A stretch of 64,000 nt of DNA from Bacillota bacterium (GCA_036830315.1 DAISOU010000004.1:30357-94356), one strand, 5' to 3'. Numbered from the stretch's first letter, positions 1 to 31,975 are shown. Made by a program: numbers and translations. Notes: generated by a model not told the origin, from the letters alone.

Positions 1-2332
1 CTTTTATGATGCTCTTGAAAGTACTGATGAAGTCACTTAATCCGATTCCGTTTTGCTCCTGAGAGGAGACAATCTGTTTCAGGGCTTCAATCTTGGAGAT
101 GCTGTCATCGACATTTCCTAACTTGTAGAGATTCTCGATGACGGGGAAGGAAACAAGGAGGTTTTGGAATATTTCACTGAATGAAGATGTGTAATTTTCT
201 TTGCAGAAAGTATCCAGAGTAAGGAAAATCTGGTCTTCTTTTATCAGTCTCAAGTCATCTCTTTGATGGTTTGAGTCAGTATCTGGGTCTCGATAGGAAA
301 TAAGTTTATAGATTTTTTCATCATCGTATTCGTAAAGGTAGCTTCTGGCTACGGAGGCAAAGAGATGTTTGGCATCTTCCTGGCTTTTGTTCATTCTGAA
401 ACTGATGAGTTTTAAGAGAGACTGAATGACGACGATGATATCGTTGCTTACCAAGTTGTCGACATTGGTCATATTCAGTTTGACGTTGTTCTCATTGAAT
501 AGTTTCTGATAAAGTGAAAAGTCCTTCTTCACTCTGAGAAGAATGGCGAAATCTCCGTATCGGCATTTTCTTAATCCACCTATATCTCGGTCATAAACCA
601 TAAAACCATCTTTAATCTTTGTTTGAATGTCAGATAGTATGGCTTTAGCATCGTAAAGGACTTCGTCTTTGTTTACACGATGTGATTTTTTGATATCGCC
701 TTCAAATTCGGATTCTCGGTCTTTTATTCTAAAGATTCCAAAATCATCATAGGGTTCGTGATAGAGATTGACTTTTTCATCGTACTGAAGCTCTTCGATG
801 GGATCCTTATAGTCGATGCCACCGTGATTAAGACGCATATATTTTTTGAAGATATAGTTGATGTCATTTAATAGATTTTTCCCGGAACGGTAGTTCTTGT
901 TCATCGGGATGACTTTGTGTCCCTGACCTGAATGGTATTCTCTCTGTCTGTTTCGGAAGAGTTCTACCTTGGAATTGTTGAAGCGGTAGATTGACTGCTT
1001 GGCATCACCGACACAGAAAAGATGAGTCCTTTCTCCGTTTTCCTTAGGAAGAAGAAGGCTGTTGATAAGAAGTTCCTGTCCGTCATTTGTATCCTGGTAT
1101 TCGTCAACCATGATGTAATTGAAACGCTCTCTTACTTCTTTGGCGACATCAGCGTACTGTTCATCAGTGAAAAGCGACAGAGCCATAGTGGAAATGTCGC
1201 TGAAAGAATAAGAATTCGTTTCTTTTTCGTAATCGTTCAATCGCGACTCTGTTTTTAGAGCCAATTCTAAAAGCAGATGAATATCGTCCTTGTAGAAATC
1301 GAGTTTACTGAATTCCTGTTCCTTGGTTCCGATATCGGCCAGGTTCTTGAGAACTCCGTCTTTGTTGCCGCAGATTGTGGTGAGTGCTTTGTAGATGGCA
1401 GCGAGCCTTGTCTTTTCGTCCTCGTCTTCGTTTTTGATTCTAGTCTTTGTAATTTTTTCCTTAAAGGTCTTGCTCTCGCTGACAAACTCTTCATCGTCGA
1501 GATCGATGAGTTTCACTAGCATTTCATAGAGAGTCTGGATATGTTCGTCTTCGTCAAAAGAAAGGCCGTGATAGTCTTTATAGAAAGAAGATGGGCTTTT
1601 AAAGAAAGACTCCAGATTATTTAGTCTGTCTCCGTTAATTTCATTGATCTGTGAATAGTGTTCCTGTAAGAAATGAGCTTTGTATATCGCTACTATCAGA
1701 TTCGATCTGATCTCTTCACAGACTTGATGATAGATGTTGTCAGAAAAATCTCTTGATAAGTATTTTGAATCATAAGTACTGATAAATTCGTTTCTTTTTG
1801 GTGTTGACATCTTCTTAAGCTCACCAAGAAGAGATATTACTGAAGATTTGATAATATCGTCGTTTTTCATCGAGAACTTACTGATTGTCGAAAAGAGACG
1901 GCGATTGTTGTCTTGATCCTTATAGTATTCTTCAAAGAGGCCGTCGACGATCTCTCTTTCTTTGGCAAAGAGGACTGAATCATTGGCGATTGTGATATTG
2001 TCGGCTATGCCAAGTCTTTTGGCATAAGTGGAAACTAGATACTGTCTGAAGGAGTCGAAGGTCTGAATATGGCTCGAGAGGATTTTATCGGCGTTAGGAT
2101 CGTTTTCCTTAGCAAATCTTTTGATGATCCTGGTTTTCATCTCATGGGCGGCATTGTTAGTGAAAGTCAAAACTAAAATACTGGAAGGCGTCACTTCGCC
2201 TTTCTTGATGAGCTGATAGACGCGTTCGCTTAAAGTCTTGGTCTTTCCGCTTCCGGCACCGGCAGTTATCAGAATGTCGACATTGGAGGAAGTGTCGATA
2301 GCTTCTTGCTGTTCTTTGTTGAATGAGGCCAT
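1..2332 (-). CDS. addA: ATP-dependent helicase/nuclease subunit A (UvrD/PcrA-type SF1 helicase). N-terminal part only; the gene runs past the window start.
   Basis: Verified minus-strand start at 2330-2332, MASFNKEQQEAIDTSSNVDILITAGAGSGKT, with Walker A GAGSGKT. Open frame continues to coordinate 1. It sits 2 nt downstream of the addB-like gene. Confidence 0.7.
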   Translation of the reverse strand, partial: MASFNKEQQEAIDTSSNVDILITAGAGSGKTKTLSERVYQLIKKGEVTPSSILVLTFTNNAAHEMKTRIIKRFAKENDPNADKILSSHIQTFDSFRQYLVSTYAKRLGIADNITIANDSVLFAKEREIVDGLFEEYYKDQDNNRRLFSTISKFSMKNDDIIKSSVISLLGELKKMSTPKRNEFISTYDSKYLSRDFSDNIYHQVCEEIRSNLIVAIYKAHFLQEHYSQINEINGDRLNNLESFFKSPSSFYKDYHGLSFDEDEHIQTLYEMLVKLIDLDDEEFVSESKTFKEKITKTRIKNEDEDEKTRLAAIYKALTTICGNKDGVLKNLADIGTKEQEFSKLDFYKDDIHLLLELALKTESRLNDYEKETNSYSFSDISTMALSLFTDEQYADVAKEVRERFNYIMVDEYQDTNDGQELLINSLLLPKENGERTHLFCVGDAKQSIYRFNNSKVELFRNRQREYHSGQGHKVIPMNKNYRSGKNLLNDINYIFKKYMRLNHGGIDYKDPIEELQYDEKVNLYHEPYDDFGIFRIKDRESEFEGDIKKSHRVNKDEVLYDAKAILSDIQTKIKDGFMVYDRDIGGLRKCRYGDFAILLRVKKDFSLYQKLFNENNVKLNMTNVDNLVSNDIIVVIQSLLKLISFRMNKSQEDAKHLFASVARSYLYEYDDEKIYKLISYRDPDTDSNHQRDDLRLIKEDQIFLTLDTFCKENYTSSFSEIFQNLLVSFPVIENLYKLGNVDDSISKIEALKQIVSSQEQNGIGLSDFISTFKSIIK

Positions 2333-2334
2333 GA

Positions 2335-4758
2335 TCAGTTCTCCTTTGCTTTCGGATTGAAATGCTCGTCTATCTTGGAAACTGAGCTTCTGATATCACT
2401 CTCTTTGTGATAACAGATGTCGTTATATATGCAGGAAGAGCAGACAAGGTTGAGTTTTGTCGGTTTCTGAGAGGGGATAAAACTTGTGGGACTGATTGGA
2501 AATTTGGCAGCTTTGATACTTCTTATGTTTTCAAGGCAGGAATTGATGGCGTCATCGACTAAGTCTTTCAGGGTATAAGTGATCGATGATTTCTTCAGCC
2601 AGGCAAAAGCCTGTTCGGATCCCTTGAAGGAATTCTTTCCGCTGACATATTTGCTTTTAGGTTCTTTTTCTGTCTTTCCCTTTAACTCCAGGGTTTCATC
2701 TATCGAATGATAGAGACTGGTATCATAGGCAAGACATCCCGTTATCTTAGTATTCTCTAAAAGATTGTCTGTTGATTGAATAGACTTAGCTTTTGATCCA
2801 TAAGCATCTTTTGGAGTATTGAAGAATATTCTCTGTATGCCAAAACCTCCGAAAGAGGCATTGTCGACTAATTTCATTTTGTCTTCGCTGTTTTCAAAGG
2901 CGTAATAATAAAGGGGAAGCTGAACAGAAGAACCGGCGCATACTGATTTGATATCGAATTGTTCCTTGCCGGTCTTATAGTCGATGAGATAGTAGTATTT
3001 TCTGCTGTCATAGTCCTGAGTCTCGACGATCTTGTCGATTCTTCCCGTAAAATGATAAGTGCAGTCCCCGTCTTTGATATCCCAGGTTATCTTCTGTTCG
3101 GAATAGTCTTTGATGATATGGGAATTATCTTTCCAGGTGTTAGTGACTGACAATATTCTTCTTAGCCACATATAGACTAAAGAAAGAGTGAGTTGTTCTT
3201 TTCCATTATCAGGAATGTTGTATTTCTTTATCTCGTCTAAGTAGAAAGCCTTTCTGTATTCAAAGCTTTTATCGAAATCGAAATCTTTATGATAGGCTTC
3301 TTCCATAATTCCATGGATCAGATTGCCTAAAATAATCGGGTGATAATCAGTTTCTGTTTTAGGAAGAGTCTCTTCAAGATAAAACTTGAAGGGACAGCAG
3401 ACATAGGACTTTAAAGCAGATACGCTCCAGACGTCTTTTCTTTTGCTTATATAAGTCTTGAGTCCTTTGAAAGAATGATCGTAGGTTCTTACTTCACCAT
3501 CGGAGAAGAGCCAGAAATTTCGGTCATATTGGTCGCAGACAAAGAGTTTCTTTGAGCGGTCGGTGTAAACACCGTTTCTGTTGATGGGATTTCTGACAAG
3601 CTTCTTCAGTTTATCGTCTTCTCCTTCGATAAACTGGGAGAGATAGATGTGATCAGCCTGGTGCTGTTCCACAAATGAAAGAAGAAGGATGTGATTATAA
3701 AGAAGATAATTGAGTTTTTTCCTCTTCTCGAGTTTAGTCTGGACATAACTGGTATTGGCACCGCATTTTTCCAGTTGCTCATCGGAGAGGATATTGTTGT
3801 CTTTATAGACCTTATAGAAGACATCGTAATGGAAATCAGTGACATAGATAATTGAATTCTGATTCATGGAAAAAGAATCAGTGACAGTGATTCCTTTATC
3901 TCCAAGACTCTTGGAATTGTTGTTTCCTTTTACGATTTCGAGCAAATCGGCATAGGCCTTATCAAAGTCGATAGTTTCAAGTTCATAGTAATCGATGACT
4001 CTTTTAAGTTCTTTCAGAGAGTCATCTTCAAGTTCTTTCTCAGTAAAGGAGAGACTTCTCTCCTGATGGATCTGTTTGATTTTTTCAGCCAAAGTCCTAT
4101 TGCTTAAAAATGGCTTTTTGTAGATGGCATAGGAAGGAACATTAAACAAAGAGCTTGCAGCATTGACGTAGAAAAGATCGTCATCGCCTTTGATGAGAAC
4201 CTTGATTTTGTCTTTTTCATCTGGATTATCGAGAAGTCTTCTTCGGATATCGGAATAGATATAGGTAAACTGCTGATATTTGTCCTTGAAGGGGATTATG
4301 TCGAGATCTAAGACATCATCATTTACTTTCTCAATGCCTAAGTCCTGGAAAGAAAGTTCCTTGAAGCTGATCTTTTTTCGCAAAAGAAGACTGCGAACTT
4401 CAAAGTCTTCCGGCATTTCAAAAAGAAAGAGATCACAGGAGTCTAATTCATATCTTCCTAATTCATCTTCCTGAAGATAGTCCTCTTTAAGTAATCCATA
4501 TAACTCTAAAAGAGTCTTATTCTTATAGAAGTCAGCCACTCTTAAAAGTTTCATCCACTTCTTTGCGGATGAATAATCCATGTCTTTTCTTTTGAGAAGA
4601 AGAGGAAGAGGGTCATTTTTATAAGTGAAGGAAGAAAGATCAAGGAGTTCTTCTTTTGTGATGATCTTTATACGCAATTCCGGATGAGCGTTTTTATAGC
4701 GGAAAAGAAGAGGAAAATAATCGCGGTCAGCTACCCAGATGCTTTTGCTGTTTTTCAC
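2335..4758 (-). CDS. addB: AddB/RexB-like helicase-nuclease subunit B, short form (807 aa). It has an iron-sulfur staple-type nuclease domain.
   Basis: The C-terminus has a Cys before the nuclease core (SVCAGSS) and then C-x2-C-x5-C (CSSCIYNDICYHKE), as in B. subtilis AddB. It lies directly upstream of addA on the same strand. The N-terminus has no Walker A. The start is GTG. Confidence 0.6.
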   Translation of the reverse strand: MKNSKSIWVADRDYFPLLFRYKNAHPELRIKIITKEELLDLSSFTYKNDPLPLLLKRKDMDYSSAKKWMKLLRVADFYKNKTLLELYGLLKEDYLQEDELGRYELDSCDLFLFEMPEDFEVRSLLLRKKISFKELSFQDLGIEKVNDDVLDLDIIPFKDKYQQFTYIYSDIRRRLLDNPDEKDKIKVLIKGDDDLFYVNAASSLFNVPSYAIYKKPFLSNRTLAEKIKQIHQERSLSFTEKELEDDSLKELKRVIDYYELETIDFDKAYADLLEIVKGNNNSKSLGDKGITVTDSFSMNQNSIIYVTDFHYDVFYKVYKDNNILSDEQLEKCGANTSYVQTKLEKRKKLNYLLYNHILLLSFVEQHQADHIYLSQFIEGEDDKLKKLVRNPINRNGVYTDRSKKLFVCDQYDRNFWLFSDGEVRTYDHSFKGLKTYISKRKDVWSVSALKSYVCCPFKFYLEETLPKTETDYHPIILGNLIHGIMEEAYHKDFDFDKSFEYRKAFYLDEIKKYNIPDNGKEQLTLSLVYMWLRRILSVTNTWKDNSHIIKDYSEQKITWDIKDGDCTYHFTGRIDKIVETQDYDSRKYYYLIDYKTGKEQFDIKSVCAGSSVQLPLYYYAFENSEDKMKLVDNASFGGFGIQRIFFNTPKDAYGSKAKSIQSTDNLLENTKITGCLAYDTSLYHSIDETLELKGKTEKEPKSKYVSGKNSFKGSEQAFAWLKKSSITYTLKDLVDDAINSCLENIRSIKAAKFPISPTSFIPSQKPTKLNLVCSSCIYNDICYHKESDIRSSVSKIDEHFNPKAKEN

Positions 4759-4792
4759 AGCTTTAGTTTATCACTTCCAGAGCCTGTTTATC

Positions 4793-4823
4793 GATAGAAA
4801 AGGCCGCTTTTTACAAGCGGCCT
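4793..4823 (-). terminator. Rho-independent terminator after the 235-aa membrane protein gene.
   Basis: 9-bp stem aggccgctt / aagcggcct, followed on the minus strand by a short U-run. Confidence 0.55.
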
Positions 4824-4832
4824 GCAGGTGGT

Positions 4833-5540
4833 TTACTTTTCTTCTTTTTCTTTGGACTTGGAGTCCTTGATATCTTCCTCAAGGGCCTTGATATTGTTGA
4901 CGGGAAGATAGTCTTTTGGTTTTTTGAAGACGACTTCTTTGATTCTGGCTCGGAATTTCTCTGTTTTGACTGCCATTTCAGCTCGGTCGATGAAGTAGAT
5001 TGACACTGATTCCCAGACAAAGACCCAGGCTGCGATATCCATGATTTCGCTGAAGACATTGATCAGAAGCTTATTGGTTCCTGTTCCTTCGATGAAATAG
5101 TTGAAGAGGATATTTGATATCAGGAACAGAATACCGATGATGAGAAGAGCGATAGCGCTTCTCTTTTTCTTCTGTAGGCCAATCCTATTGTTGAAATAGT
5201 GAATGTTCATGTTGTCTTCCAAGATCTGATTGGCATCTTCGATAGTATAGCCGTCATAATCTTTAATATTGAAGATGATATTGACATCGTAGACTAGAGG
5301 AATAAGCTGGACGATTCCCCGGAGTTTTTCTTTGAAATCAGTAGTAAAGAACCTCGCTTTTCCGTTTCCCAGATTCTGGTCGAGGAAATCTTCGAAGTGA
5401 TCATAGTGGAATTCGATAGTGGCTACGCCTTTGTCATTGTCGAGAATAAAGTACTTGCCGAGTATCTCATTCTGCTGGGAGAAGACCTTTTTGCCTAATA
5501 CCTTCAGCTTATTCTTTTTGTCCGGTGCTTCAAGTTTCAT
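4833..5540 (-). CDS. Hypothetical membrane protein with a ~125 aa cytoplasmic N-domain and two TM helices.
   Basis: 235-aa ORF with the hydrophobic stretch AIALLIIGILFLISNILFNYFI. Same strand as the ABC exporter pair and 30 nt downstream of it. Confidence 0.5.
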   Translation of the reverse strand: MKLEAPDKKNKLKVLGKKVFSQQNEILGKYFILDNDKGVATIEFHYDHFEDFLDQNLGNGKARFFTTDFKEKLRGIVQLIPLVYDVNIIFNIKDYDGYTIEDANQILEDNMNIHYFNNRIGLQKKKRSAIALLIIGILFLISNILFNYFIEGTGTNKLLINVFSEIMDIAAWVFVWESVSIYFIDRAEMAVKTEKFRARIKEVVFKKPKDYLPVNNIKALEEDIKDSKSKEKEEK

Positions 5541-5569
5541 AACAATGCTTCTTTCTTTATACCAATATA

Positions 5570-7405
5570 TTAAGCTAATTCGGTTTTGCCTGTATAGAGG
5601 TCATAGTAAGGACCTTTGTTTTTCAAAAGCTCTTCCTGTCTTCCCCGTTCAATGATATTTCCATTGTCGAGCACGATTATTTCGTCAGCATCGCGGATGG
5701 TGCTTAAGCGGTGGGCGATGATGATGACAGTTCTTTCTTTCATCAGTTTATTCAGTCCTTCATGGATGAGTTCTTCGCTTCTGGTGTCGATGTTGGATGT
5801 AGCTTCATCCAATATCAAAACCGGAGGCTGATTGAGAGTGGCACGAGTCAATCCCAAAAGCTGTCTCTGTCCTTCTGATAAGTTTGAGCCGTCATCAAAA
5901 AGCATAGTTGAATAACCGCGGGGCATTCTCTTGATGAAGCTGTCTGAGCAGCTGTTGACTGATGCTTCTTCGATTTCTTGCTGAGAAGAATGACGCCTGA
6001 CATAACGGATATTGTCTTCGATAGTTCCTGTGAACAGATGAGTATCCTGAGTAACCATCGACAAAGCTCTTCTGAGAGAATCTAATTTGATATCTTCAAT
6101 ATTGATTCCGTCATAGGTGATACGACCAGAATCAAGAGGATAGAATCTGGCGAGAAGGGAGATAATAGTTGTTTTTCCGGCTCCAGTCGATCCGACAAAT
6201 GCGACCTTTTGACCTGGATATGCCTCAAAGGAGACATTCTTCAATATTGGATGACCTTTACTATAGCTGAAACAGACATTTTCAAACTTGATTACGCCAG
6301 CTAACGGCACTTCTTTAAGAGAACCATCCTTATTTTTAAAGCTCCAGACGTATCTGTCTTTGAAGGTCTTGTCTTCATTCTTCCTGAGAAGCTGAACCTG
6401 TCCGTTATCTTCTTCGTTCTTCTCATCGAGGAAGGAGAATATTCGTTCAGCACCGGCTAAGCCTGAGAGGATGTTGTTGATATGCATAGTCAGGTAGTTG
6501 AAAGGCTGACAGGCGGTTCTCACAAAGACTAAGTAGGAAGAAAGTCCGCCGATACCAGAAGACAATAATCCATTGGCTAAAAAGAGACAGCCGACTATCG
6601 AGGAGACGGCAAAATTGAAGTAGCTCAGGGAGACATTCACCGGTATGGCAAGCTGAGTGTGGAAGAAGGCTTCCTGGCTGGCTTTCCGCCACTGGTCATT
6701 GGCTTTGTCAAAAGCCTGAAGACTTTCTTCTTCGTGGTTGAAGGCTTTCATGACCTTGATGCCGGCGATATCTTCTTCGACTCTGGAGTTGACATCGGAA
6801 AGACAGTCCTGCTGGGCCTTGAAATACTTTCTGGCTGCCCGGGAATTTAAGAACATGAAGAGGAACATCAGTATCAGGAAGAAAATGACTATCAGGGATA
6901 GATAGACGTTGATGAGGAAGAGACAGACTATGGTACCGAAAAGTTTTGTGATAGTCAGAAAGATATTGGCCAGTGATTCGTTTAGCATGATGACTAGCGT
7001 GTCAACATCATTGGTGAAGAAGGTCATTATCGAACCATGAGTGTGGCGGTCAAAATAGGAAATGGGAAGAGACTCCAGCTTATCGATGAGTTCCTGTCTG
7101 ATTCTGAAGATCACCTTCTGAGTCAACCTGACCATCAGCTGAGAATAGATGATGCAGGCAATGATCCCTACAGAATAGATGATTCCGATATTTATACAGA
7201 GAGAGGCTAGGTTCTTTCCGTTGTTATAGGCTAAATCGTTGATGACATCTTTCGACATGTAGTTTCCGATGATCGAGGCTAAGCCGACATAGACGGCTAA
7301 GACCATCACCAAGAGGAAAAAGGCTCTCTGTCCTTGGAAGAAGGACCAGAGTCTTTTGACAGTCGGGAGCATTTTTTTTGGTCTGGATGCGTTTAATGAT
7401 TTCAT
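5570..7405 (-). CDS. ABC transporter ATP-binding/permease protein (type B exporter, half-transporter).
   Basis: N-terminal 6-TM domain. Walker A GSTGAGKTT, ABC signature LSEGQRQLLGL, Walker B ILILDEATS. Confidence 0.9.
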   Translation of the reverse strand: MKSLNASRPKKMLPTVKRLWSFFQGQRAFFLLVMVLAVYVGLASIIGNYMSKDVINDLAYNNGKNLASLCINIGIIYSVGIIACIIYSQLMVRLTQKVIFRIRQELIDKLESLPISYFDRHTHGSIMTFFTNDVDTLVIMLNESLANIFLTITKLFGTIVCLFLINVYLSLIVIFFLILMFLFMFLNSRAARKYFKAQQDCLSDVNSRVEEDIAGIKVMKAFNHEEESLQAFDKANDQWRKASQEAFFHTQLAIPVNVSLSYFNFAVSSIVGCLFLANGLLSSGIGGLSSYLVFVRTACQPFNYLTMHINNILSGLAGAERIFSFLDEKNEEDNGQVQLLRKNEDKTFKDRYVWSFKNKDGSLKEVPLAGVIKFENVCFSYSKGHPILKNVSFEAYPGQKVAFVGSTGAGKTTIISLLARFYPLDSGRITYDGINIEDIKLDSLRRALSMVTQDTHLFTGTIEDNIRYVRRHSSQQEIEEASVNSCSDSFIKRMPRGYSTMLFDDGSNLSEGQRQLLGLTRATLNQPPVLILDEATSNIDTRSEELIHEGLNKLMKERTVIIIAHRLSTIRDADEIIVLDNGNIIERGRQEELLKNKGPYYDLYTGKTELA

Positions 7406-9177
7406 GCTTTCATCCCCTCGGTCTGGATCTTATAGATAGACTGATAGATATCGTCTATCTCTTTCAGTTCTTCGCTTGTTCCGATATTGTGGATCTTTCC
7501 GTCATTTAAAACGATGATCTTGTCCGCATTTTCAATAGTCGAAACTTTCTGGGAGATGATTATCTTTGTCATATGGGGAAGACGTGTCTTGAGATTGGAT
7601 TTAACTTCTTCCTCTGTGATTCTGTCTAAGGCAGAGAAGGAATCATCGAGTATCAGGATTTTCGGATTTTTGAGGATGGCTCTGGCTATGCAGATTCTCT
7701 GTCTCTGACCGCCGGAGATATTGCTTCCTGTCTGACCTAATTCAGTTTGGAAACCTAAAGGCAGTTTATCGACGATGAAAGAATAACAGCCTGCTATCTT
7801 GCAGCTTTCCTCAATCTGCTCTTTAGTGGCTTCTTTGTTTCCCCAGCAGAGATTGTCTTCGATAGTCCCTGAGAAGAGACGGGGATTCTGGAAGGAGATG
7901 GCGATATTTGATCTCAGTTCTTTTAGCGAATAGTCTTTGATGTTCTTTCCGTCGATGAGTATTTCACCTTCTGAGGCATCATAGAATCTTTCAATCAGGC
8001 TGATTAAGGTGGTTTTCGAACTTCCAGTCTGTCCTAAAATACCGACAAAATCGCCATCGGAGATATCAAAGCTTATATGACTGAGGACATTCTCCTTGGC
8101 TGTCTCTTTGTATTTGAATGAGACATCTTTGAAGGATATCGAACCGGAAGTTATTTTTTCCTTGGAGTCCTTGTTGTCTTTGATTTCATTTTCGGAGCTG
8201 AACACCTGTTTGATTCTATAGGCGCTGGCCTGAGATCTGGTGAAAGTCATGAAGACATTGGATAACATATTCAAAGAGGCCAATACCTGCATGACATAGC
8301 TCAAGTAGGCGGTGATGTTGTTGATGAGCTTACCGGTGGTGTCAGCTAGGGAAAGTTTTCCTCCGACATAGAGAACACCGATAAGGCAGGCATAAGTCAT
8401 CAAGTCCATCGCTGCCATATTCCAGGCGCTGACAGAAAAAGATTTTATTCCTATGTCGTTTACTTCTTTGTTCACCTTTGTGAACTTGGAGATCTCATAA
8501 TCCTTTTTGGCGTTGGCTTTGACTAATTTGATGGCGACTAAACTTTCCTGAGTGGTTCTATTGACGTTATCAAGAGCATCCTGGACTCTGATGAAAAGAG
8601 GCTTGGCCTTGATGATGATGAGAACTAAGAGGAGAGCGAGAACTGGAAGAACAATGGCGAATACTAAGGACAGGTCTTTTGACATCAAGACGGCAAAGAC
8701 GAGGGAAAAGGCTAATTGAATAGGTGCTCTTAAGATAGCTCTCAAGGTCTGACAGAAGGCATCGGAGACAATCTGAACATCGTTTGTGATTCTGGTCACC
8801 AGGGAATTGAGGCGGAATTCATCCATGTTGCTGAAAGAGAATTCTTGAATCTTCTTATATTCGGCTTTTCTTAGTTCATATCCTAATCCTCTTCCGGCTA
8901 TGGCCGTGAATTTGGCAGTGATTATTCCTAAGAATATGGAAACTAAGGCAAAAGCCATCATTATTCCGCCTATCATCAGGATATAATCCATATTAAGCGT
9001 ATAGGAGATGATTTGATTCTGTTCGTTCAATACGGGGTTCATTCCATAGTCGAGAAGTTCTTTCATCAAAAAAGGAATGCTTATTTCCAAAGCACATTCG
9101 ACAATGATGGTAATACAGGCAATAATGAAGAATTTCCTATAAGGCTTCAAAAACCTGAGCAGTGAATTTTTAAACAT
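7402..9177 (-). CDS. ABC transporter ATP-binding/permease protein, the heterodimeric partner.
   Basis: GQTGSSKTT Walker A, LSGGQRQRICIARA signature, ILILDDSFSALD. Overlaps the downstream partner by 4 nt. Confidence 0.9.
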   Translation of the reverse strand: MFKNSLLRFLKPYRKFFIIACITIIVECALEISIPFLMKELLDYGMNPVLNEQNQIISYTLNMDYILMIGGIMMAFALVSIFLGIITAKFTAIAGRGLGYELRKAEYKKIQEFSFSNMDEFRLNSLVTRITNDVQIVSDAFCQTLRAILRAPIQLAFSLVFAVLMSKDLSLVFAIVLPVLALLLVLIIIKAKPLFIRVQDALDNVNRTTQESLVAIKLVKANAKKDYEISKFTKVNKEVNDIGIKSFSVSAWNMAAMDLMTYACLIGVLYVGGKLSLADTTGKLINNITAYLSYVMQVLASLNMLSNVFMTFTRSQASAYRIKQVFSSENEIKDNKDSKEKITSGSISFKDVSFKYKETAKENVLSHISFDISDGDFVGILGQTGSSKTTLISLIERFYDASEGEILIDGKNIKDYSLKELRSNIAISFQNPRLFSGTIEDNLCWGNKEATKEQIEESCKIAGCYSFIVDKLPLGFQTELGQTGSNISGGQRQRICIARAILKNPKILILDDSFSALDRITEEEVKSNLKTRLPHMTKIIISQKVSTIENADKIIVLNDGKIHNIGTSEELKEIDDIYQSIYKIQTEGMKA

Positions 9178-24628: not shown

Positions 24629-24635
24629 TCTATGA

Positions 24636-24675
24636 AAGCCTTGGCGCAGTGCCAGGGCTTTTTTTATTTTTTTCC
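24636..24675 (+). terminator. Strong rho-independent terminator after the GT4 gene.
   Basis: Stem aagccttggc / gccagggctt followed by TTTTTTATTTTTTT. Confidence 0.7.
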
Positions 24676-24729
24676 TTAATTTCAGAGAAGATCTGTTAAT
24701 TTTGATTCTGAGACTGTATATTAATCCTG

Positions 24730-27552
24730 ATGAGTAATTGTTTTCTGACCAATCGGTCTGAAGTGACTTTCCTGAATAAGATCAAGCTGTGTCTTAAAAG
24801 ATGCCGCTCTTTTAAATTATCCGTGTCTTTTATCAAGAAGGCCGGTCTTGTTCTTTTACAGCAGGAGATAATCCAGGCTCTGGAAAGAGGAGCATCGGGA
24901 CAGATAATCACTTCCGGGTATCAGAATTTCACTGATATTTCTTCTTTGGAGATCTTCAATAACTGGCAGAGGAAATATCCAAATTTCAGTTGTCATTTCG
25001 ATCTTGATTCTTTTGGCGATGACGGTTTTCACTGCAAAGGATATCTCTTTGAAGGCGACAAAGACTTTGAGATGATCGTCGGTTCTTCAAATATAACCAG
25101 ATTTGCCTTGCTGAAGAATGTTGAATGGGATGTGTCTTTGTCAGACAAAGAGAGATTCAGTTCTTTTAATGACAGCCTCATAGAATTCGATGTTCTTTGG
25201 AAGAAGACTGCTCCACTTACAGATGAACTGATACGCGCTTATCAGACAAGACTAGCCTATGCCATTGAAAAGTGGGATATGGACTACGTCTCCTCGATGA
25301 ATGGCTCCAGTATCAGACCTAACTATATGCAGAAGATGGCCATGAAGGATATCAGACGATATCGTGATATGGGAGCGACTAAGGCCTTAGTCGTTGCTGC
25401 CACTGGTTCCGGTAAGACGTATCTGGCTGCTTTTGATGCTTTGAATTATGGAGCCAAGAGACTTCTTTATATTGTTCACCGTGAAAGCATTCTAGTTGAT
25501 GCCAGAAAGTCGTTTATTAAAGTATTCTCAAATAAAAAGCTCACATTTGGATTATATACAGGCGATAAAAAAGAACTGGACTGCGATTTTATTTTCGCTA
25601 CTAATTCCGAGATGTCCAGGCATCTTGAAATATTTGATCCTAAGGAGTTTGATTATATCATCCTTGATGAATGCCATCATTCCACAGCTGATTCTTATCA
25701 GAAAATCATTCAGTATTTCCAACCCAGTTTTCTATTAGGACTGACAGCTACACCTGACCGTATGGACAATAAGGATGTTCTTCAGGTCTTTGATAAGAAC
25801 ATTCCTTATCAGCTATCTATCGCCGATGCCTTGAACAATGATCTGATTGTTCCTTTCAAGTACTACGCTATCCGTGATGAATACGTTGATTATTCTTTGG
25901 ATAAAACAGATTATCAGCTGATGATAAACCAGATTGTATCGCCTGAAAACTGCGCTTTTGTCGATGAACAGATAAAAAGCCATCTGCCCGTTAACGGGAA
26001 ATTGAAGGCTATCGGGTTCTGTCGGAATATTCAACATGCTCAATTGATGAGTCAGAGAATGAATGACTTAGGCTATCATACAACCTATCTTACTGGAAAC
26101 AATGATACTGGGGAGAGAATAGAGTCTTTTAAAGAATTATCGGATGAGAGTGATCCTCTTCAGATCATTTTTGCCGTAGATGTTTTAAACGAAGGCGTCG
26201 ATGTCCCGGCCATGAATATGGTTCTGTTTTTAAGACCTACTCAGTCACAGACTATCTTTATTCAGCAATTGGGACGTGGATTGAGAAAATACGAAGGCAA
26301 AAACTTCCTGACTGTCCTAGATTTTATCGGCAATAGTTATCAGAGAAGTGTTCAGATAGCATTAGCTCTTTCTTCTCTGAAACCCAATTCTGTTATAGAA
26401 AAACCTGCTCTCTGTGCTTTGGTCACTGATAATTTCAGACAGCTTGATCTTCCTATCGAAGTCTTCTTTGATGAGAAATCGAAAGAAGAGATTCTGAACT
26501 ATATTTCCAGAACCAATTTCAATAGCAAAGATTTTCTCAAAGGTGATTATCTGAAATTCAAAGACTATCTTCATAGTGAGACTTATCCTTCCCATATGGA
26601 TTATCTAAATGATGCCTGTGCCCCTGACTTGATGAGGTTTATCAATTCAAGAGTAAATGGTACCGTAAACGGCTGTTACTACAACTTCCTAAAGAAGATG
26701 GAAGAGGAAAATATTACATTGTTTACGAAAGATGAAGTTGAAATACTTGTAGACTTAAGTCAGTTGCTCCCTCTTATAAGACCCGATGATTATTCAATCT
26801 TCCTATCGCTTTTATCTGGTGATAAGAACGCTGATGAATTGGCAGAGGATGATAAGAAATACGGAATATTCAAATCTGGTCAGTTTGAAAATGCACTTCG
26901 TTTTCTTGAGGGAAAACTCTATTCTGATAATGAACAGTTTTCTAAGAAGTGGCTCATCGTCAAAAATGATAACGGACTTTATCATCTCGATTCATCTTCT
27001 TTCAGCGATGAGTTCAGGGAACATCTTTTGGATCTTTTAAATTACGGATTAGAAAGATTTAGAAGCGAATACGGAATGTTCGAAGGCGATTTAAGTCTTT
27101 ACGGAAACTACACCACCTCTCAGATCATGATGGCCTTGAATCAGAAAAAGCTTCAGTATATGAAGGGAACTATGTACGATGGAGAACACGGAGTTCTTTT
27201 TGTCGGATTGAAAAAAGATTCATCTATCAGCGAAAGACTTAAATACGCAGATAAGTTCTTATCTGCCGATGTTTTCCAATGGGAATCGGAAGTGGGATGC
27301 GATTATTATTCGGCAGTAGGAAAGAAAGTACTTAAATTGAAGAAAGTCTCCTTGTTTATCCGTAAGGTTAAAGAAGAAGACGGCATAAGAATGCCTTATC
27401 TATATGTCGGAGAAGGCAGGATGACTAATCCTCGTCTTACTTCAAATCCCGGAAAGACTCTTTTGTTTGATATCATCCTTGATCACAGGGTCGATATCAG
27501 GCATCGGGATGAACTTCTGGTTCCTGAAAAGAATGAAGGAGAAGAAGAATGA
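24730..27552 (+). CDS. HKD(PLD)-family nuclease domain fused to an SF2 DEAH-box helicase, with a ~350 aa C-terminal domain (DUF3427-like). Function uncharacterised.
   Basis: HKD motif HCKGYLFEGDKDFEMIVGSSN. Walker A AATGSGKT. DECHH box. Motif III TAT. Motif VI QQLGRGLR. Confidence 0.8.
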   Translation: MSNCFLTNRSEVTFLNKIKLCLKRCRSFKLSVSFIKKAGLVLLQQEIIQALERGASGQIITSGYQNFTDISSLEIFNNWQRKYPNFSCHFDLDSFGDDGFHCKGYLFEGDKDFEMIVGSSNITRFALLKNVEWDVSLSDKERFSSFNDSLIEFDVLWKKTAPLTDELIRAYQTRLAYAIEKWDMDYVSSMNGSSIRPNYMQKMAMKDIRRYRDMGATKALVVAATGSGKTYLAAFDALNYGAKRLLYIVHRESILVDARKSFIKVFSNKKLTFGLYTGDKKELDCDFIFATNSEMSRHLEIFDPKEFDYIILDECHHSTADSYQKIIQYFQPSFLLGLTATPDRMDNKDVLQVFDKNIPYQLSIADALNNDLIVPFKYYAIRDEYVDYSLDKTDYQLMINQIVSPENCAFVDEQIKSHLPVNGKLKAIGFCRNIQHAQLMSQRMNDLGYHTTYLTGNNDTGERIESFKELSDESDPLQIIFAVDVLNEGVDVPAMNMVLFLRPTQSQTIFIQQLGRGLRKYEGKNFLTVLDFIGNSYQRSVQIALALSSLKPNSVIEKPALCALVTDNFRQLDLPIEVFFDEKSKEEILNYISRTNFNSKDFLKGDYLKFKDYLHSETYPSHMDYLNDACAPDLMRFINSRVNGTVNGCYYNFLKKMEEENITLFTKDEVEILVDLSQLLPLIRPDDYSIFLSLLSGDKNADELAEDDKKYGIFKSGQFENALRFLEGKLYSDNEQFSKKWLIVKNDNGLYHLDSSSFSDEFREHLLDLLNYGLERFRSEYGMFEGDLSLYGNYTTSQIMMALNQKKLQYMKGTMYDGEHGVLFVGLKKDSSISERLKYADKFLSADVFQWESEVGCDYYSAVGKKVLKLKKVSLFIRKVKEEDGIRMPYLYVGEGRMTNPRLTSNPGKTLLFDIILDHRVDIRHRDELLVPEKNEGEEE

Positions 27553-27947
27553 AATGCGTTAAGGCGGCAGCGGCAATGATCGTCTATAAAGATCGATTTC
27601 TGGTCGCTCAGAGAGGATACGGAGAATTCAAAGACTTCTGGGAGTTTCCTGGCGGAAAAGTAGAATTGAATGAACGGCCAGAAAATACGATTGTCCGAGA
27701 AATCAAAGAAGAATTAAATGCCGACATCATCGTTGATACTCTTATTACAGATATTGAACACGACTACGATTCATTTCATTTATCAATGAAATTATTTGCC
27801 TGCCATCTTAATAACTGTAGCATAGAGTTGCTTGAACATGAAGCTTCAAAATGGATCACTGTCGCTGAGCTGGATTCAATTGGTTTTCTGCCTGCTGACA
27901 AAAAGGCCCTGCCATTTATAAAAGACTATTTTACAAAGAAGAAGTAA
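27549..27947 (+). CDS. Nudix hydrolase (MutT/8-oxo-dGTP or CTP pyrophosphohydrolase-like).
   Basis: Nudix box GGKVELNERPENTIVREIKEELN. Start overlaps the helicase stop (ATGA). Confidence 0.85.
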   Translation: MKCVKAAAAMIVYKDRFLVAQRGYGEFKDFWEFPGGKVELNERPENTIVREIKEELNADIIVDTLITDIEHDYDSFHLSMKLFACHLNNCSIELLEHEASKWITVAELDSIGFLPADKKALPFIKDYFTKKK

Positions 27948-29328
27948 GTTTTTCTTTTATCTTTCTGTCGATATTTTCTACCTGTTCTTTCAGGTGTTCT
28001 TTCGTGCCGTCAGTCTTGAGGATGAAATCCAGTTTATGATGATTCTTATCATAGGAATTGAGGTTGTTGAATTTTAGGCGGTCTTCAATATCCTTATCTC
28101 CTCTTTCTTTCAGATGTTCTTCCTGTCTTGTTGTTTCACAGCCTATAAGATAAGTGAATCCTTTATCCATCTTGGCATCAAACAAAAGAGGTACTTCAAT
28201 CGCTTTATTGACATCGTCGTTATCGATGATGAACTCATTGACCCTTCTTCTGATGATGGAGAAGATGAAATTCTGATAGTTTCTTTTGAATGCTTTATCA
28301 GAAACGAGTTTTTCAGATACTAAGACTTTGTCTACTTCCGGATTAAAGACATCGGGAAATTTCTTTTTGAGTTCGGTAAGGAATGCTTTATCTTTGTAGA
28401 GTTTTCCGACTTCTTCATCACAGGACATAGTCTTATAGCCTAATTCTCTAAAATAGGATAGAGCGAGGCTTTTTCCTGAACCGATCTTACCGGTTATTGC
28501 TAAGGAGACTCCTGTATGCTGGCACTTAGGACAATATGAAGTTCCTCTTCCTTCCAGCTTTCTTTTTTCGATTTTGAAAGTCTTGCATCTAGTGCATTCT
28601 TTTCCGTCTCGGGAATAGACTTTGAGGAAATTTTGGAAAGACCCTTCTACATCTTCAGTGGCTTTATAGCTTCTGACAGTTGACCCGTGATTTTCAATTG
28701 ACTGAGTCAGGATTCTAATGGAATTTGAAAGGATATCTTCGCAGTTTTTCAAAGTAACTTTGTTTCCTGGCATAAAAGGAGAAATAGAGGAGGCAAAACA
28801 GACTTCATCAGCGTAGATATTGCCAAGTCCTGACATAATGGACTGATCCAAAAGGAGTTCTTTTATCGGTTTTTTCTTAGTTTTATAGATGTCAAACAGA
28901 TATTGAGGGTCATTGATTTCAAATGGTTCTCTTCCTAATTCTTCCAAAGGTCCTTCTTCGTCTTTTTTTAGATAATAGGAGACTCCGAACTTTCTGACAT
29001 CGTAAAATGCCAATCCTTCTTCATCGTTTCTGAAAGGAATGAAAAGTGACAGATGAGAAGAGGGGTGGCTTTCTTTATCGACCACGAATAATTTTCCTTC
29101 CATCCTCAGATGGAAAAGAACCTGATGGTCGTCGTTTAGAAGGAAGATCAAGAATTTTCCTCTTCTTCTTATTTCGAGTATGGTCTTATTTTCCAATCCC
29201 TGCACGTATTCGTTAAGAGGTGTTTTGATCATGCCTTTGAAAAAGACAACTGGTTTGTCAAAGGTCTTATTGACTATGCGTTTAGTCAATTCCCGTCTGA
29301 CAGTCTCGACTTCAGGAAGCTCTGGCAT
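27931..29328 (-). CDS. mutM: Fusion protein: formamidopyrimidine-DNA glycosylase (MutM/Fpg) joined to dephospho-CoA kinase (CoaE).
   Basis: N-terminus MPELPEVETVRREL, where the catalytic Pro2 requires a start at 29326-29328. Zinc finger CTRC…CPKC runs through a QHTG linker into the CoaE P-loop VSLAITGKIGSGKS with no stop codon. Confidence 0.75.
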   Translation of the reverse strand: MPELPEVETVRRELTKRIVNKTFDKPVVFFKGMIKTPLNEYVQGLENKTILEIRRRGKFLIFLLNDDHQVLFHLRMEGKLFVVDKESHPSSHLSLFIPFRNDEEGLAFYDVRKFGVSYYLKKDEEGPLEELGREPFEINDPQYLFDIYKTKKKPIKELLLDQSIMSGLGNIYADEVCFASSISPFMPGNKVTLKNCEDILSNSIRILTQSIENHGSTVRSYKATEDVEGSFQNFLKVYSRDGKECTRCKTFKIEKRKLEGRGTSYCPKCQHTGVSLAITGKIGSGKSLALSYFRELGYKTMSCDEEVGKLYKDKAFLTELKKKFPDVFNPEVDKVLVSEKLVSDKAFKRNYQNFIFSIIRRRVNEFIIDNDDVNKAIEVPLLFDAKMDKGFTYLIGCETTRQEEHLKERGDKDIEDRLKFNNLNSYDKNHHKLDFILKTDGTKEHLKEQVENIDRKIKEKLTSSL

Positions 29329-29329
29329 A

Positions 29330-31975
29330 TCAGTGGGCCTCATACCAGTCGACACTGGCTTCTCCTTCGACTTTGAAGGGAACATTCATACTTATGGCTT
29401 TCTCCATGCATTCTTTAAGGATAGGAAGTACTTTGTCAAGTTCATTGTCAGGTACTTTGAATAGGAGTTCATCGTGAATCTGAAGAATGATCTTTGTCTC
29501 ATATCCTTTTAGGGCATTTTGACATTTGACCATGGCGACTTTGATCAAGTCGGCCGCTGACCCCTGAATGACGGTATTGACAGCTGCTCTTTCCGAGAAT
29601 GACCTTAAGATTCTGTTAGTGGAATTGATATCCTTGAGATATCTTCTTCGGTTGAGGACAGTCGTCACATAGCCTTTTTCTCTGGCACTGTTTATACATT
29701 TGTTCTGGAATTCATCGACGCCTTCAAAACTGGCTTTGAAGCTCTTGATGAGATCAGAGGCTTCATCGCGGGGAATATCAAGCTGCTGGGAAAGACCAAA
29801 GGGAGAAATGCCGTAGACGATTCCAAAGTTGACAGCTTTTGCTTTTCTTCTCATTTCGCTGGTGACTTCATCAATGGGGACATTGAAGACACGGCTGGCC
29901 GTGGCTTTATGAATATCGTATCCTTCTCTGAAGATCTCTAAAAGAGCTTTGATGTTGCCGACGGAAGCTAAAACACGTAACTCAATCTGTGAATAATCCA
30001 GAGAGAGGATTTTATATTTGTGATCAGGATAGAAGAAGGCTTTTCTGATGTTCTTGCCTTCTTCATTTCGAATAGAAATATTCTGAAGATTAGGTTCAGA
30101 CATTGAAAGTCTTCCGGTAGAAGTCAGAGCCTGATTATAGATAGCGTGGATCTTATCATCTTTTCCAATGTGCTTAGGAAGAGAAGAAGTATAACCGGAT
30201 ACTAACTTGTTGTAGATTCTGTATTCCATGATGAGAGGAATAATCGGATGGTCTTCTTTATGGGCATTGAGAACATCGATTCCCGTTCCTTTTTCGCCCT
30301 TGAATTTGCTGATGCCTAAATCGGTAAAGAGAACTTCTTCGAGTTTCTTAGGTGAGTTGATATTGAATTCTTGATTGGCTAATCGATAAATTTCTCTTTG
30401 CAAAGAGGTTAATTTTAGCTGGTATTCATCATCGATACTCTTCAAAGTATCCAAATTGATCGGGAATCCTTCTATTTCCATCTTTGCCAAGAGATCGGCA
30501 AGTGGCATTTCTACATTTTGGAAAAGTTCAGTCTCTTCGTTGTTCTGAAGATCTTCGATGACTTTGTCTTTTAAATCCAGAGCATAGGAAAGAGTCTGAT
30601 AGGCGATATTCTTGTTGGCATCTAAGGAGATTCCATACGACAAGAAGAGAGAATCTCTTTTTTGCCCGCAGTCAGGATTGATAAGATATGTCGCCAAGAG
30701 AAGATCAAAGGTCACTCCTCTGATTTCTGGGTAAACATAGCGGCTCAAAAGAACAGACAGGCCCTTGAAATCATAGACCGTGAGTTCTTTCTTGTCGGCT
30801 TTCAAAAACTCTTTGAAGCTGTCGTCATTTTTGGCATCTGCTTCTTTAAGCTGATAGATATTGTCGTCTCCCCCTAAAAGGAAACTGTATAAAGAGGAAG
30901 TATTTTCGTTTTCGCCGCTTGCATCATAGGTGATTCCTAAAATATTTTCTTTTATTTCAGAAAAAGAAGATATTTCAATGAGTTTTCTTTCTTTATAGGG
31001 TGAAGCGTTTTCATCTTTGTTCTTCTCATCGTAAGAGGAGAAGAAAGAATCCAGAGACATCTGCATCGATTCCGATGTGTCTTTTATACCGGGCATTCTG
31101 TCGATAGAAGACAAGAACTGACTGAGTTGATAACGAAGATAGAATTTAGACAGTTTTCCTTTTTCATAGGGCTGGTACAAGGACTTGGAATAGGCTTCTT
31201 CCATATCTAAAGAGGTATCGATGGCTGCCAGCTTCTTTGAGAAAAGCGCATCTTCCTCTCCAGCGATGATCTTCTGATTGATTTTGCTGTCTGGATGTTC
31301 TTTGCAGAAAGCGATGACGTTCTCCAGGTGACCGTGTTCTTCCAGTAGCTTCTTAGCAGTCTTCTCTCCTACGCCTTTTATTCCTTTGTAGTTGTCGGAA
31401 CTGTCTCCGGCCATTCCCTTATAGTCGACTATCTGGTCGGCATTTAATCCGAAGGCATCATAGAGGTTATCCTGAGTCAGAACCAAGGTCTCGGAAAGAC
31501 CTTTTTTCAATAGTTCGACAGAGACGTTCTTTCCTAACTCCAAAAGCTGCAGAAAATCGTGATCGGAGGTGAAAAGACGGACTTCATCACCTTTTGAACT
31601 GGCATATTTAGCCATGGAACCGGCTAAGTCATCTCCTTCATAGCCCTCTTTTTCTTCCCAGTAGATATTCATGCTTTCCAGCATTTCTCTGGCTATTGGC
31701 ATCTGAGCGATAAGCTCAGAGGGAGCTGGTTTTCTCTGTGCCTTATAATCGGCAAACTCTTTTTTTCTCAGCGTCGGAGAACCGGTATCAAAGGCGACAA
31801 AGAGATTATCGCCTTCATTGATCTTCATCTTTATCTTTTTGATGAGATTATGAAAAGCGAAGATGGCATTGATCGGAATGTTATCTTTAGTCGTCATGAT
31901 GTTTCCAGTATAGGCAGTTGAATAATAGGCTCTGAAGAGAAGTGAATTGCCATCGACGATATAAGTTTTTTTCAT
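29330..31975 (-). CDS. polA: DNA polymerase I.
   Basis: 881 aa. 5-prime nuclease N-domain and C-terminal family A polymerase motifs (DYSQIELR, KAVNFGIVYG, QIHDELLF). Confidence 0.95.
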   Translation of the reverse strand: MKKTYIVDGNSLLFRAYYSTAYTGNIMTTKDNIPINAIFAFHNLIKKIKMKINEGDNLFVAFDTGSPTLRKKEFADYKAQRKPAPSELIAQMPIAREMLESMNIYWEEKEGYEGDDLAGSMAKYASSKGDEVRLFTSDHDFLQLLELGKNVSVELLKKGLSETLVLTQDNLYDAFGLNADQIVDYKGMAGDSSDNYKGIKGVGEKTAKKLLEEHGHLENVIAFCKEHPDSKINQKIIAGEEDALFSKKLAAIDTSLDMEEAYSKSLYQPYEKGKLSKFYLRYQLSQFLSSIDRMPGIKDTSESMQMSLDSFFSSYDEKNKDENASPYKERKLIEISSFSEIKENILGITYDASGENENTSSLYSFLLGGDDNIYQLKEADAKNDDSFKEFLKADKKELTVYDFKGLSVLLSRYVYPEIRGVTFDLLLATYLINPDCGQKRDSLFLSYGISLDANKNIAYQTLSYALDLKDKVIEDLQNNEETELFQNVEMPLADLLAKMEIEGFPINLDTLKSIDDEYQLKLTSLQREIYRLANQEFNINSPKKLEEVLFTDLGISKFKGEKGTGIDVLNAHKEDHPIIPLIMEYRIYNKLVSGYTSSLPKHIGKDDKIHAIYNQALTSTGRLSMSEPNLQNISIRNEEGKNIRKAFFYPDHKYKILSLDYSQIELRVLASVGNIKALLEIFREGYDIHKATASRVFNVPIDEVTSEMRRKAKAVNFGIVYGISPFGLSQQLDIPRDEASDLIKSFKASFEGVDEFQNKCINSAREKGYVTTVLNRRRYLKDINSTNRILRSFSERAAVNTVIQGSAADLIKVAMVKCQNALKGYETKIILQIHDELLFKVPDNELDKVLPILKECMEKAISMNVPFKVEGEASVDWYEAH

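Follow-up and report, generated by a model that had tools for sequence, protein, structure and literature searches.

The 64,000-nucleotide (nt) stretch of Bacillota contig DAISOU010000004.1 analysed here, referred to as the window throughout, carries two coupled genes on its plus strand that very probably encode a type IV restriction enzyme of the SauUSI family and the conserved Nudix partner of that family. The first gene (24730..27552) encodes a protein of 940 amino acids (aa), the second (27549..27947) a Nudix protein of 132 aa. With only slightly less confidence, we read the pair as a two-gene module for defence against foreign DNA, of a kind already known, set among the housekeeping genes of an uncultured, low-GC bacterium resembling Bacilli or Mollicutes. 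The system, its structure, its mechanism and the linkage to a Nudix gene are known already; what is new is a diverged member, with about 30% identity.

A first-pass annotation of the window had described the 940-aa open reading frame (ORF), its motifs and its ATGA overlap with the Nudix gene, all of which are present in the sequence. It had guessed at a nuclease-helicase for defence against phages or foreign DNA, and the match to the SauUSI family bears this guess out. It had also called the family uncharacterised and had said that similarity to a system characterised before, such as a known restriction family, would speak against its novelty. The large protein shows such a similarity.

Similarity of the large protein to SauUSI

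A phmmer search of the PDB with the large protein retrieved SauUSI (SAUSA300_2431, structure 7CLG) with E=7.7e-110 over residues 8-919. Comparison with the PADLOC models, which the first-pass annotation had proposed as a check, gave mREase_IV (PDLC03658) with E=2.6e-109, residues 7-892 being aligned to a model of 953 positions. E-values of around 1e-110 rule out a chance ORF. The AlphaFold2 (AF2) model of the protein has a mean pLDDT of 82.9, and its best Foldseek match was again 7CLG (E=5.6e-53), over the full length and 941 columns. The runners-up (RadD, XPB and type I/ISP enzymes, at about 1e-16) were restricted to the helicase core.

The two proteins (940 aa in the window, 953 aa in S. aureus) contain the same four parts in the same order and align end to end. 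The earlier domain reading of a PLD/HKD nuclease, an SF2 helicase and a DUF3427-like region is in line with the Pfam matches to PLDc_2, ResIII, Helicase_C and DUF3427. The N-terminal PLD-family nuclease/dimerisation domain (residues 1 to about 165, 24730..25224) is a marginal match to PLDc_2 (27.3 bits, cut-off 27). It contains the HxK...GSSN motif HCKGYLFEGDKDFEMIVGSSN (HCKGY...GSSN, residues 101-121, 25030-25092), in which H101/K103 and G118-S-S-N121 align with H119/K121 and GSSN of SauUSI (HMMER alignment to 7CLG). The SF2 helicase-like ATPase/translocase follows at about residues 195-597 (25312..26520; ResIII 1.6e-36, Helicase_C 2.7e-12) and has a Walker A motif GSGKT (residues 226-230, 25405-25419), DECHH (residues 313-317, 25666-25680), the motif III TAT (residues 339-341) and the motif VI QQLGRGLR (residues 512-519, 26263-26286).

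The remaining C-terminal part had been described as a domain of about 350 aa of unknown function. In SauUSI, this part is a helical coupler followed by an SRA-like reader of 5-methylcytosine (5mC) and 5-hydroxymethylcytosine (5hmC). The coupler of the window protein (about residues 598-790, 26521..27099) was delimited by alignment with the SauUSI coupler, residues 618-805. It spans the DUF8090 region (PF26350 in precomputed Pfam) and the N-terminal portion of DUF3427, and it is all-helical in the AF2 model. The C-terminal portion of DUF3427 (Pfam E=1.3e-30) forms the SRA-like target-recognition domain (about residues 791-925, 27100..27504), which is beta-rich in the model and matches the SauUSI domain even by itself (BLASTP, E=4e-9). 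Its D841 (27250-27252) aligns with D858 of SauUSI, and F824, V825 and W851 align with F841, I842 and W868. These four SauUSI residues, together with M829 and Y831, have been modelled as its 5mC pocket and wedge.

Family alignments of homologues with 27-72% identity showed little or no variation at H101, K103, the GSSN sequence, all helicase motifs and D841, and D841 is invariant in those of 27-54%. For the catalytic His and Lys, this is the outcome that the first-pass annotation had asked of orthologues.

SauUSI, a type IV enzyme of Staphylococcus aureus that depends on ATP, cuts DNA carrying 5mC or 5hmC, with S5mCNGS as preferred site, and it is the chief obstacle to the transformation of this species (PMC3141236, PMC3312211). 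Its biochemistry was reported in 2011, the crystal structure 7CLG in 2021 and the single-molecule mechanism in 2025. The enzyme is a dimer held together by its PLD nuclease domains, and the HxK motifs (H119/K121) constitute the active site; the other parts are the SF2 translocase, the helical coupler and a C-terminal reader of SRA fold, which has been modelled flipping 5mC into a pocket where D858 reads the base (PMC7913695). Once a modified cytosine is bound by one reader, ATP hydrolysis and directional translocation set in, and the partner reader can keep hold of the site, giving rise to a growing loop. Cleavage is triggered at a distant methylated site, at favoured sequences or at DNA ends, and repeated cycles shred the DNA (PMC7913695, bioRxiv 10.1101/2025.10.16.682607). 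Hemimethylated sites are enough to launch translocation (bioRxiv 10.1101/2025.10.16.682607).

From the homology, we infer that this mechanism carries over to the large protein of the window. It would dimerise by its N-terminal PLD domains, and H101/K103 of the two protomers would together make up its active site. 5mC or 5hmC would be flipped out by the SRA-like domain at the C-terminus, with D841 reading the base, and recognition would turn on the SF2 ATPase, leading to translocation, repeated cutting and finally shredding of modified, non-self DNA. The host would be spared, presumably being free of C5-methylation at the target sites. As with SauUSI, there is a tightly coupled Nudix gene; within the 64 kb of the window, the immediate neighbours (GT4 gene, Nudix gene, mutM-coaE) include no methyltransferase gene. 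A flipped-base reader of 5mC/5hmC joined to a nuclease is also found in TagI/ScoA3IV (SRA-HNH), YenY4I (DUF3427-PD-(D/E)XK) and the MspJI family; however, these enzymes have no helicase motor, are ATP-independent and use other nuclease folds.

Some observations weigh against the assignment to the SauUSI type. The protein shares no more than about 27-30% identity with SauUSI. The loop that holds M829 and Y831 in SauUSI differs and aligns ambiguously, with K812/T814 in the HMMER alignment and with Y816 in that of MAFFT. Moreover, at least one homologue of SauUSI, ScoA3I, showed no modification-dependent cleavage of DNA in vitro. The same observations would suit a large protein that has diverged from SauUSI in function, either reading another modification or acting in DNA repair or processing. 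Such a divergence could also be read from the DUF3427 match, which is weaker than in other homologues (107 versus 319 bits), and from the DNA repair and replication genes in the chromosomal vicinity (mutM, polA, dnaE). Nevertheless, we consider it very unlikely, as all catalytic and base-reading signatures are kept, the neighbourhood is not conserved in relatives and the hallmark Nudix partner of the family is retained. Because of the ambiguous M829/Y831 loop, the sequence context recognised by the window enzyme may differ from the S5mCNGS of SauUSI.

Full-length relatives of the large protein, with up to 49.6% identity, are also found in short 'Bacteriophage sp.' records from human faecal viromes and in two 'Staphylococcus phage' records (together our homologues H13-H20, e.g. 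MT836390.1 3383-6133). These may be mis-binned bacterial fragments or true phage-borne type IV enzymes.

Linkage of SauUSI-like and Nudix genes

The coupling to a Nudix gene had been considered unusual in the first-pass annotation. In fact, it is the norm for the SauUSI family and has been known since 2011, when Xu et al. reported a MutT/Nudix-like gene (SAUSA300_2432) linked to sauUSI and such genes linked to at least 60 SauUSI-like genes (PMC3141236). They noted of the linked Nudix that its 'function ... remains to be examined' (PMC3141236). Monk et al. (2012) found the Nudix gene to be dispensable for restriction, since a delta-nudix S. aureus still restricts.

Conservation of the pair in other genomes, another check suggested at the outset, was evident in both sets of related loci. 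Of the 13 genome loci, 8 have a neighbouring Nudix gene: L001-L007 carry it directly downstream and L013 upstream, with large proteins down to 30% identity. In a metagenome survey of 80 loci, whose large proteins are 29-56% identical to that of the window, 65 have an adjacent Nudix gene. It lies at most 400 nt away in 62 loci (33 downstream, 22 upstream, 7 convergent), three more are adjacent as well, and in another two the Nudix gene is about 1.6 kb off. Among the metagenome loci without a Nudix gene, 7 have truncated flanks and only 6 have at least 500 nt on both sides, so that the linkage holds for about 90% of the loci with adequate flanks.

The reverse test agreed with this: a PLD-helicase-DUF3427 gene lies right next to the Nudix homologue in Succinatimonas (a gammaproteobacterium), in an unrelated Firmicute and in S. 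aureus. Two plasmid copies of the module (Lactiplantibacillus, Chondrinema) carry the Nudix gene as well. The gene order differs between S. aureus, where the Nudix gene lies upstream with a gap of 1 nt, and the window, where it lies downstream with the ATGA overlap.

The genes flanking the module vary in every lineage. In the window, the nearest ones are a GT4 glycosyltransferase gene on one side and mutM-coaE on the other, and neither was ever found beside the module in the 93 related loci (13 genome, 80 metagenome). Outside the window, the only contigs that have mutM as a neighbour are essentially identical to it. The pair therefore acts as a mobile two-gene unit, and its surroundings of mutM, polA and dnaE in the window are incidental.

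The two genes of a module do not always share their nearest relatives. In L004, L016 and L020, the enzymes share only 30-32% identity with the window enzyme, yet their partners are 52-54% identical to the window Nudix; in L002/L003, whose enzymes are nearer (46-48%), the partners reach only 31-32%. These apparently incongruent gene trees suggest that partners may have been swapped between modules.

In two loci, a broken SauUSI-like gene stands beside an intact Nudix gene. In L003 (5983-8795), it is frameshifted into 222 and 714 aa; in L017 (3007-5973), from one Succinatimonas population, it is split into 424 and 547 aa. These could be cases of defence-gene decay or assembly errors.

The Nudix protein and its relatives

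The Nudix protein, presumably a pyrophosphohydrolase of (deoxy)nucleoside triphosphates, matches Pfam NUDIX_4/NUDIX and the PADLOC family PDC-S07 (E=9.8e-40), residues 1-125 being aligned to model positions 3-129 of 135. Its best PDB match is 5X1X (E=1.5e-22, 37% identity), deposited as 'Mutator mutT protein'. This entry is 99% identical to the S. aureus Nudix protein (SAUSA300_2432) whose gene lies upstream of sauUSI with a gap of 1 nt, so the structure of the SauUSI partner Nudix has been solved already. The S. aureus protein shares the LxEH and PAD signatures with the window Nudix, and we found no substrate data for it in the literature searched.

The Nudix box of the window protein reads G36-x5-E42-x7-R50-E51-I52-x-E54-E55-x-N57, with Asn in place of the final Gly of the consensus GX5EX7REUXEEXGU. 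Across the SauUSI-linked clade this Gly is replaced by Asp, Asn or Lys, including in the active Bacteroides fragilis enzyme Q5LBB1 (structure 3GWY, EEMDY). The final Gly is evidently dispensable in this subfamily. In a neighbour-joining (NJ) tree of 79 sequences, calculated without support values, 3GWY nests within the SauUSI-linked Nudix clade, to which neither E. coli MutT nor Bartonella 3HHJ belongs. Two residues mark the clade: the His of LxEH (73 of 79 sequences), which is Gly in MutT, and the Asp of PAD (77 of 79), which takes the place of MutT's Asn119.

When the PDB was searched with the SauUSI-linked Nudix of L004, 3GWY came first (E=1.7e-30). Several SauUSI-linked members share 45-48% identity with 3GWY, which is as near as those members are to one another.

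Substrate and role of the Nudix partner

In a screen of 74 compounds, Q5LBB1 was specific for 5-substituted cytidine and deoxycytidine triphosphates (CTP, dCTP), with kcat/Km values of 6.7e6 for 5-Me-CTP, 4.8e6 for 5-Me-dCTP and 4.4e6 M-1 s-1 for 5-hydroxymethyl-dCTP, and it was far less active on canonical nucleoside triphosphates (NTPs) (PMC5158307). Judging from the sequence relationship, the Nudix of the window may likewise hydrolyse 5-substituted (d)CTP (5-methyl-dCTP, 5-hydroxymethyl-dCTP) to the monophosphate, a prediction that we regard as evenly balanced.

The substrates of 3GWY carry exactly the bases that the nuclease reads, and on this ground we tentatively suggest that the partner Nudix has a role in self-protection. 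Somewhat more tentative still is the combined proposal, in which the Nudix would be a dedicated 5-methyl/5-hydroxymethyl-dCTP pyrophosphatase and, by sanitation of the nucleotide pool, the self-protection arm of the system. Modified dCTP could come from the salvage of shredded foreign DNA or from phage metabolism. By clearing it, the Nudix would keep the chromosome free of 5mC, even of hemimethylated sites, and no self-restriction would ensue. Stray incorporation of 5mC would be dangerous since hemimethylated sites already trigger SauUSI. As a side benefit, phages that build 5hmC or 5mC genomes would be starved. The Nudix would thus take the part that the methyltransferase has in classical restriction-modification, but in inverted form.

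Dispensability for restriction (Monk 2012) is what one would expect of a safeguard rather than of a subunit, and the viability of the delta-nudix strain fits a sanitation role when a source of 5mC is absent. In the literature outside subscription-only journals, we found no account of the function of the linked Nudix other than Xu 2011 and Monk 2012, and no proposal or test of a sanitation role.

The biochemical role proposed here has precedents in E. coli NudG (Orf135) and mammalian DCTPP1/RS21-C6, sanitisers that prefer 5-methyl-dCTP. NudG is also a Nudix enzyme, with activity on CTP and dCTP as well as 5-methyl-dCTP; however, the window protein scores only 59.8 against the NCBIfam NudG cut-off (NF007834) of 156. 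DCTPP1 has an unrelated, all-alpha fold, and genes for DCTPP1-like MazG proteins are found in the islands that hold the module. For neither enzyme is a linkage to a restriction enzyme known.

There are also points against this proposal. The window Nudix is only 33% identical to 3GWY, whose placement in the clade comes from the NJ tree without support values, and Nudix specificity is hard to transfer by homology (PMC5158307). The delta-nudix strain of S. aureus is viable in a sauUSI+ background (Monk 2012), so cells grown in the laboratory do not depend on the Nudix as an antitoxin. Furthermore, the B. fragilis-type genes stand alone in the three Bacteroides contigs that we inspected, with no SauUSI-like neighbour. 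We had considered a direct link of the 3GWY gene to such a neighbour, and this was rejected, as P0241 and P0243 stand alone beside a DprA-like gene. Since 3GWY genes are not SauUSI-linked, the prediction of the substrate draws on clade membership. The Bacteroides genes (L024 1979-2419; L025; L026 6001-6393) are divergent from the DprA-like (DNA_processg_A) gene.

The Nudix could instead be an offensive second layer. It would destroy the 5-hydroxymethyl- and 5-methyl-dCTP pools of phages, and the SauUSI-like enzyme would cut whatever modified DNA is made. This idea has the same biochemical basis as self-protection, namely the activity of 3GWY on 5-hydroxymethyl-dCTP and the clade membership. 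PADLOC lists the Nudix family as a stand-alone, single-gene phage-defence candidate (PDC-S07), and a 2025 review floats conversion of the 5hmdCTP pool as a possible target of host sensing. PDC-S07 has candidate status only, however, and we found no phage-resistance phenotype or functional test for it in the literature searched; its enrichment in defence islands could merely mirror the linkage to SauUSI-type genes. We regard an offensive role as unlikely, though not far-fetched. It is not mutually exclusive with self-protection.

It is quite unlikely that the Nudix is an ordinary housekeeping sanitiser of the MutT type (an 8-oxo-dGTPase) which travels with the restriction gene and perhaps belongs to an 8-oxoguanine (GO) system together with mutM. 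Public annotations do name homologues '8-oxo-dGTP diphosphatase MutT', the MutT model TIGR00586 is among the best NCBIfam equivalog-type matches, and the Nudix gene is convergent with mutM-coaE and overlaps it. Yet the protein stays below every curated cut-off (65.3 bits versus 97.9 for TIGR00586, 59.1 versus 148 for NF008044) and is only 24% identical to E. coli MutT, which lies outside the clade. In MutT, Asn119 of the PAN motif reads 8-oxoguanine. The window Nudix has the Asp of its clade at this position. Hitch-hiking is made improbable by the high linkage rate, the varied gene order and the plasmid copies, and a SauUSI-like gene stands beside the Nudix gene in nearly all related loci. The GO-system role raised by the first-pass annotation was rejected, as mutM is adjacent in none of the 93 related loci and the Nudix fails the criteria for MutT.

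Hydrolysis of ATP by a helicase gives ADP and phosphate, not pyrophosphate. This counts against a Nudix that modulates the restriction enzyme, whether through hydrolysis of the ATP/dATP cofactor or of a nucleotide signal, or through removal of products of the pyrophosphate type, on which Xu et al. had speculated. In favour of a modulator are the tight coupling of the genes, by ATGA in the window and with a 1-nt gap in S. aureus, the speculation of Xu 2011 about a role linked to ATP/dATP hydrolysis and the hint of a general theme given by a second small pyrophosphatase (MazG/DCTPP1-like) paired with another helicase in the same islands. We nevertheless hold such a modulator to be extremely unlikely, because SauUSI functions in vitro and in vivo without the Nudix and the only characterised clade member is far less active on canonical NTPs.

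Gene boundaries and expression signals

The translational coupling that had been proposed for the two genes is well supported by their junction, GAAGAATGAAATG. The ATG of the Nudix gene (27549-27551) overlaps the TGA of the large gene (27550-27552) as ATGA, and a Shine-Dalgarno sequence AAGGAG (27536..27541, plus strand) lies 7 nt upstream, within the 3' end of the large gene. Public gene calls let the Nudix begin at Met10, which results in a protein of 123 aa (P0001; L014 5847). The overlapping start is better supported because of the AAGGAG 7 nt upstream and because homologues align from residue 1. A start at Met10 would remove the first beta-strand (MKxxKVVAAII), which is kept in all Nudix homologues.

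At its 5' side, the module is bounded by an intrinsic terminator that belongs to the GT4 glycosyltransferase gene before it (24634..24672, plus strand). It consists of a strong hairpin (24634-24662) with a 13-bp stem (6 GC pairs) and a 3-nt loop, followed by a T-run. The terminator had been predicted together with a promoter of the module's own, and only the former was found: a consensus scan of the 67-nt gap (24663-24729) returned no sigma-70-type promoter. The sole promoter-like element in the gap is a TATATT at 24717-24722. It ends 7 nt before the ATG and would suit a leaderless transcript that begins with the A of the ATG. The SauUSI-like gene has neither a Shine-Dalgarno sequence nor a consensus -35 element (24663-24732). 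The start of its protein, MSNCFLTNRS, is kept in the 68%-identical orthologue of L001.

Surroundings of the module

Downstream, the Nudix gene is indeed convergent with mutM, as had been noted. The neighbour (27931..29385, minus strand) is a 484-aa ORF for a fusion of Fpg/MutM and CoaE (dephospho-CoA kinase), on which public gene calls agree. It overlaps the Nudix gene by 17 nt at the 3' ends, with no terminator between them. Its true start is probably Met20 (MPELPEV..., ATG ending 29328), because Fpg needs an N-terminal Pro. With this start, just 1 nt would separate the gene from the stop codon of polA (29330-29332).

The idea of a defence island in the window was rejected. Besides the near neighbours, the large ORFs scanned in the 64 kb encode housekeeping proteins (ABC transporters, EzrA, PNPase, an M3 peptidase, a GH3 glycosidase and an AddB-like nuclease), and none of these other large ORFs has a PADLOC match except for cross-matches of ABC ATPases. 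Two ABC transporter genes (5570-9177), for example, gave spurious partial matches to 'mad3' through their ATPase domains. An ORF of 807 aa (2335-4758, minus strand) has a C-terminal PD-(D/E)XK domain (PDDEXK_1) and no PADLOC match; it probably encodes a recombination nuclease subunit of the AddB/RexB type. Recent horizontal acquisition could not be argued from base composition, as the gap between the GC content of the module (38.7-38.8%) and that of the window (41%) is too small.

In several related loci, DCTPP1-like MazG genes (about 107 aa, PF12643; mouse dCTP pyrophosphatase 1 is matched with E=7.5e-17) stand beside SauUSI-like genes. We had considered them as non-homologous substitutes for the Nudix, as L009/L010 have a MazG-like gene and no Nudix gene. 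This idea was weakened and has ambiguous support only: in the gene order of 14 loci and one plasmid, the MazG-like gene mostly abuts the gene for a helicase of the Schlafen-group-3/DUF2075 type, and it is more probably the partner of this helicase than of the SauUSI-like gene. The helicase is 650-730 aa long and has weak similarity to AbiO/Nhi/PDC-S41. The MazG-helicase pair is found next to SauUSI-Nudix modules in varying order (L004 5509-11179; L005; L009/L010 8832-11380; L046; L071; L081; L094; L109). The last of these is the L. plantarum plasmid NZ_CP028230.1, where the order is Nudix, SauUSI-like, MazG-like, helicase (2005-7400). MazG and helicase may be a second defence pair of a small NTP pyrophosphatase and a helicase, or all four genes may form a supermodule.

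Conclusions

The assignment to the SauUSI family corrects an annotation gap, since the NCBI label for such genes is just 'DUF3427 domain-containing protein' or 'DEAD/DEAH box helicase', with 'MutT' for the partner. For the organism, it predicts a SauUSI-type barrier to methylated DNA, so that dcm-minus DNA would be the material of choice for transforming such uncultured gut relatives of Bacilli and Mollicutes. For the family, the Nudix partner has been a loose end for fifteen years, and the linkage, together with the activity of a clade member, gives a testable idea of how autoimmunity may be avoided in modification-dependent restriction. If this idea is true, the combination of a type IV restriction enzyme and a nucleotide-pool sanitiser would be a two-component logic of immunity that has been overlooked since the linkage was reported in 2011.

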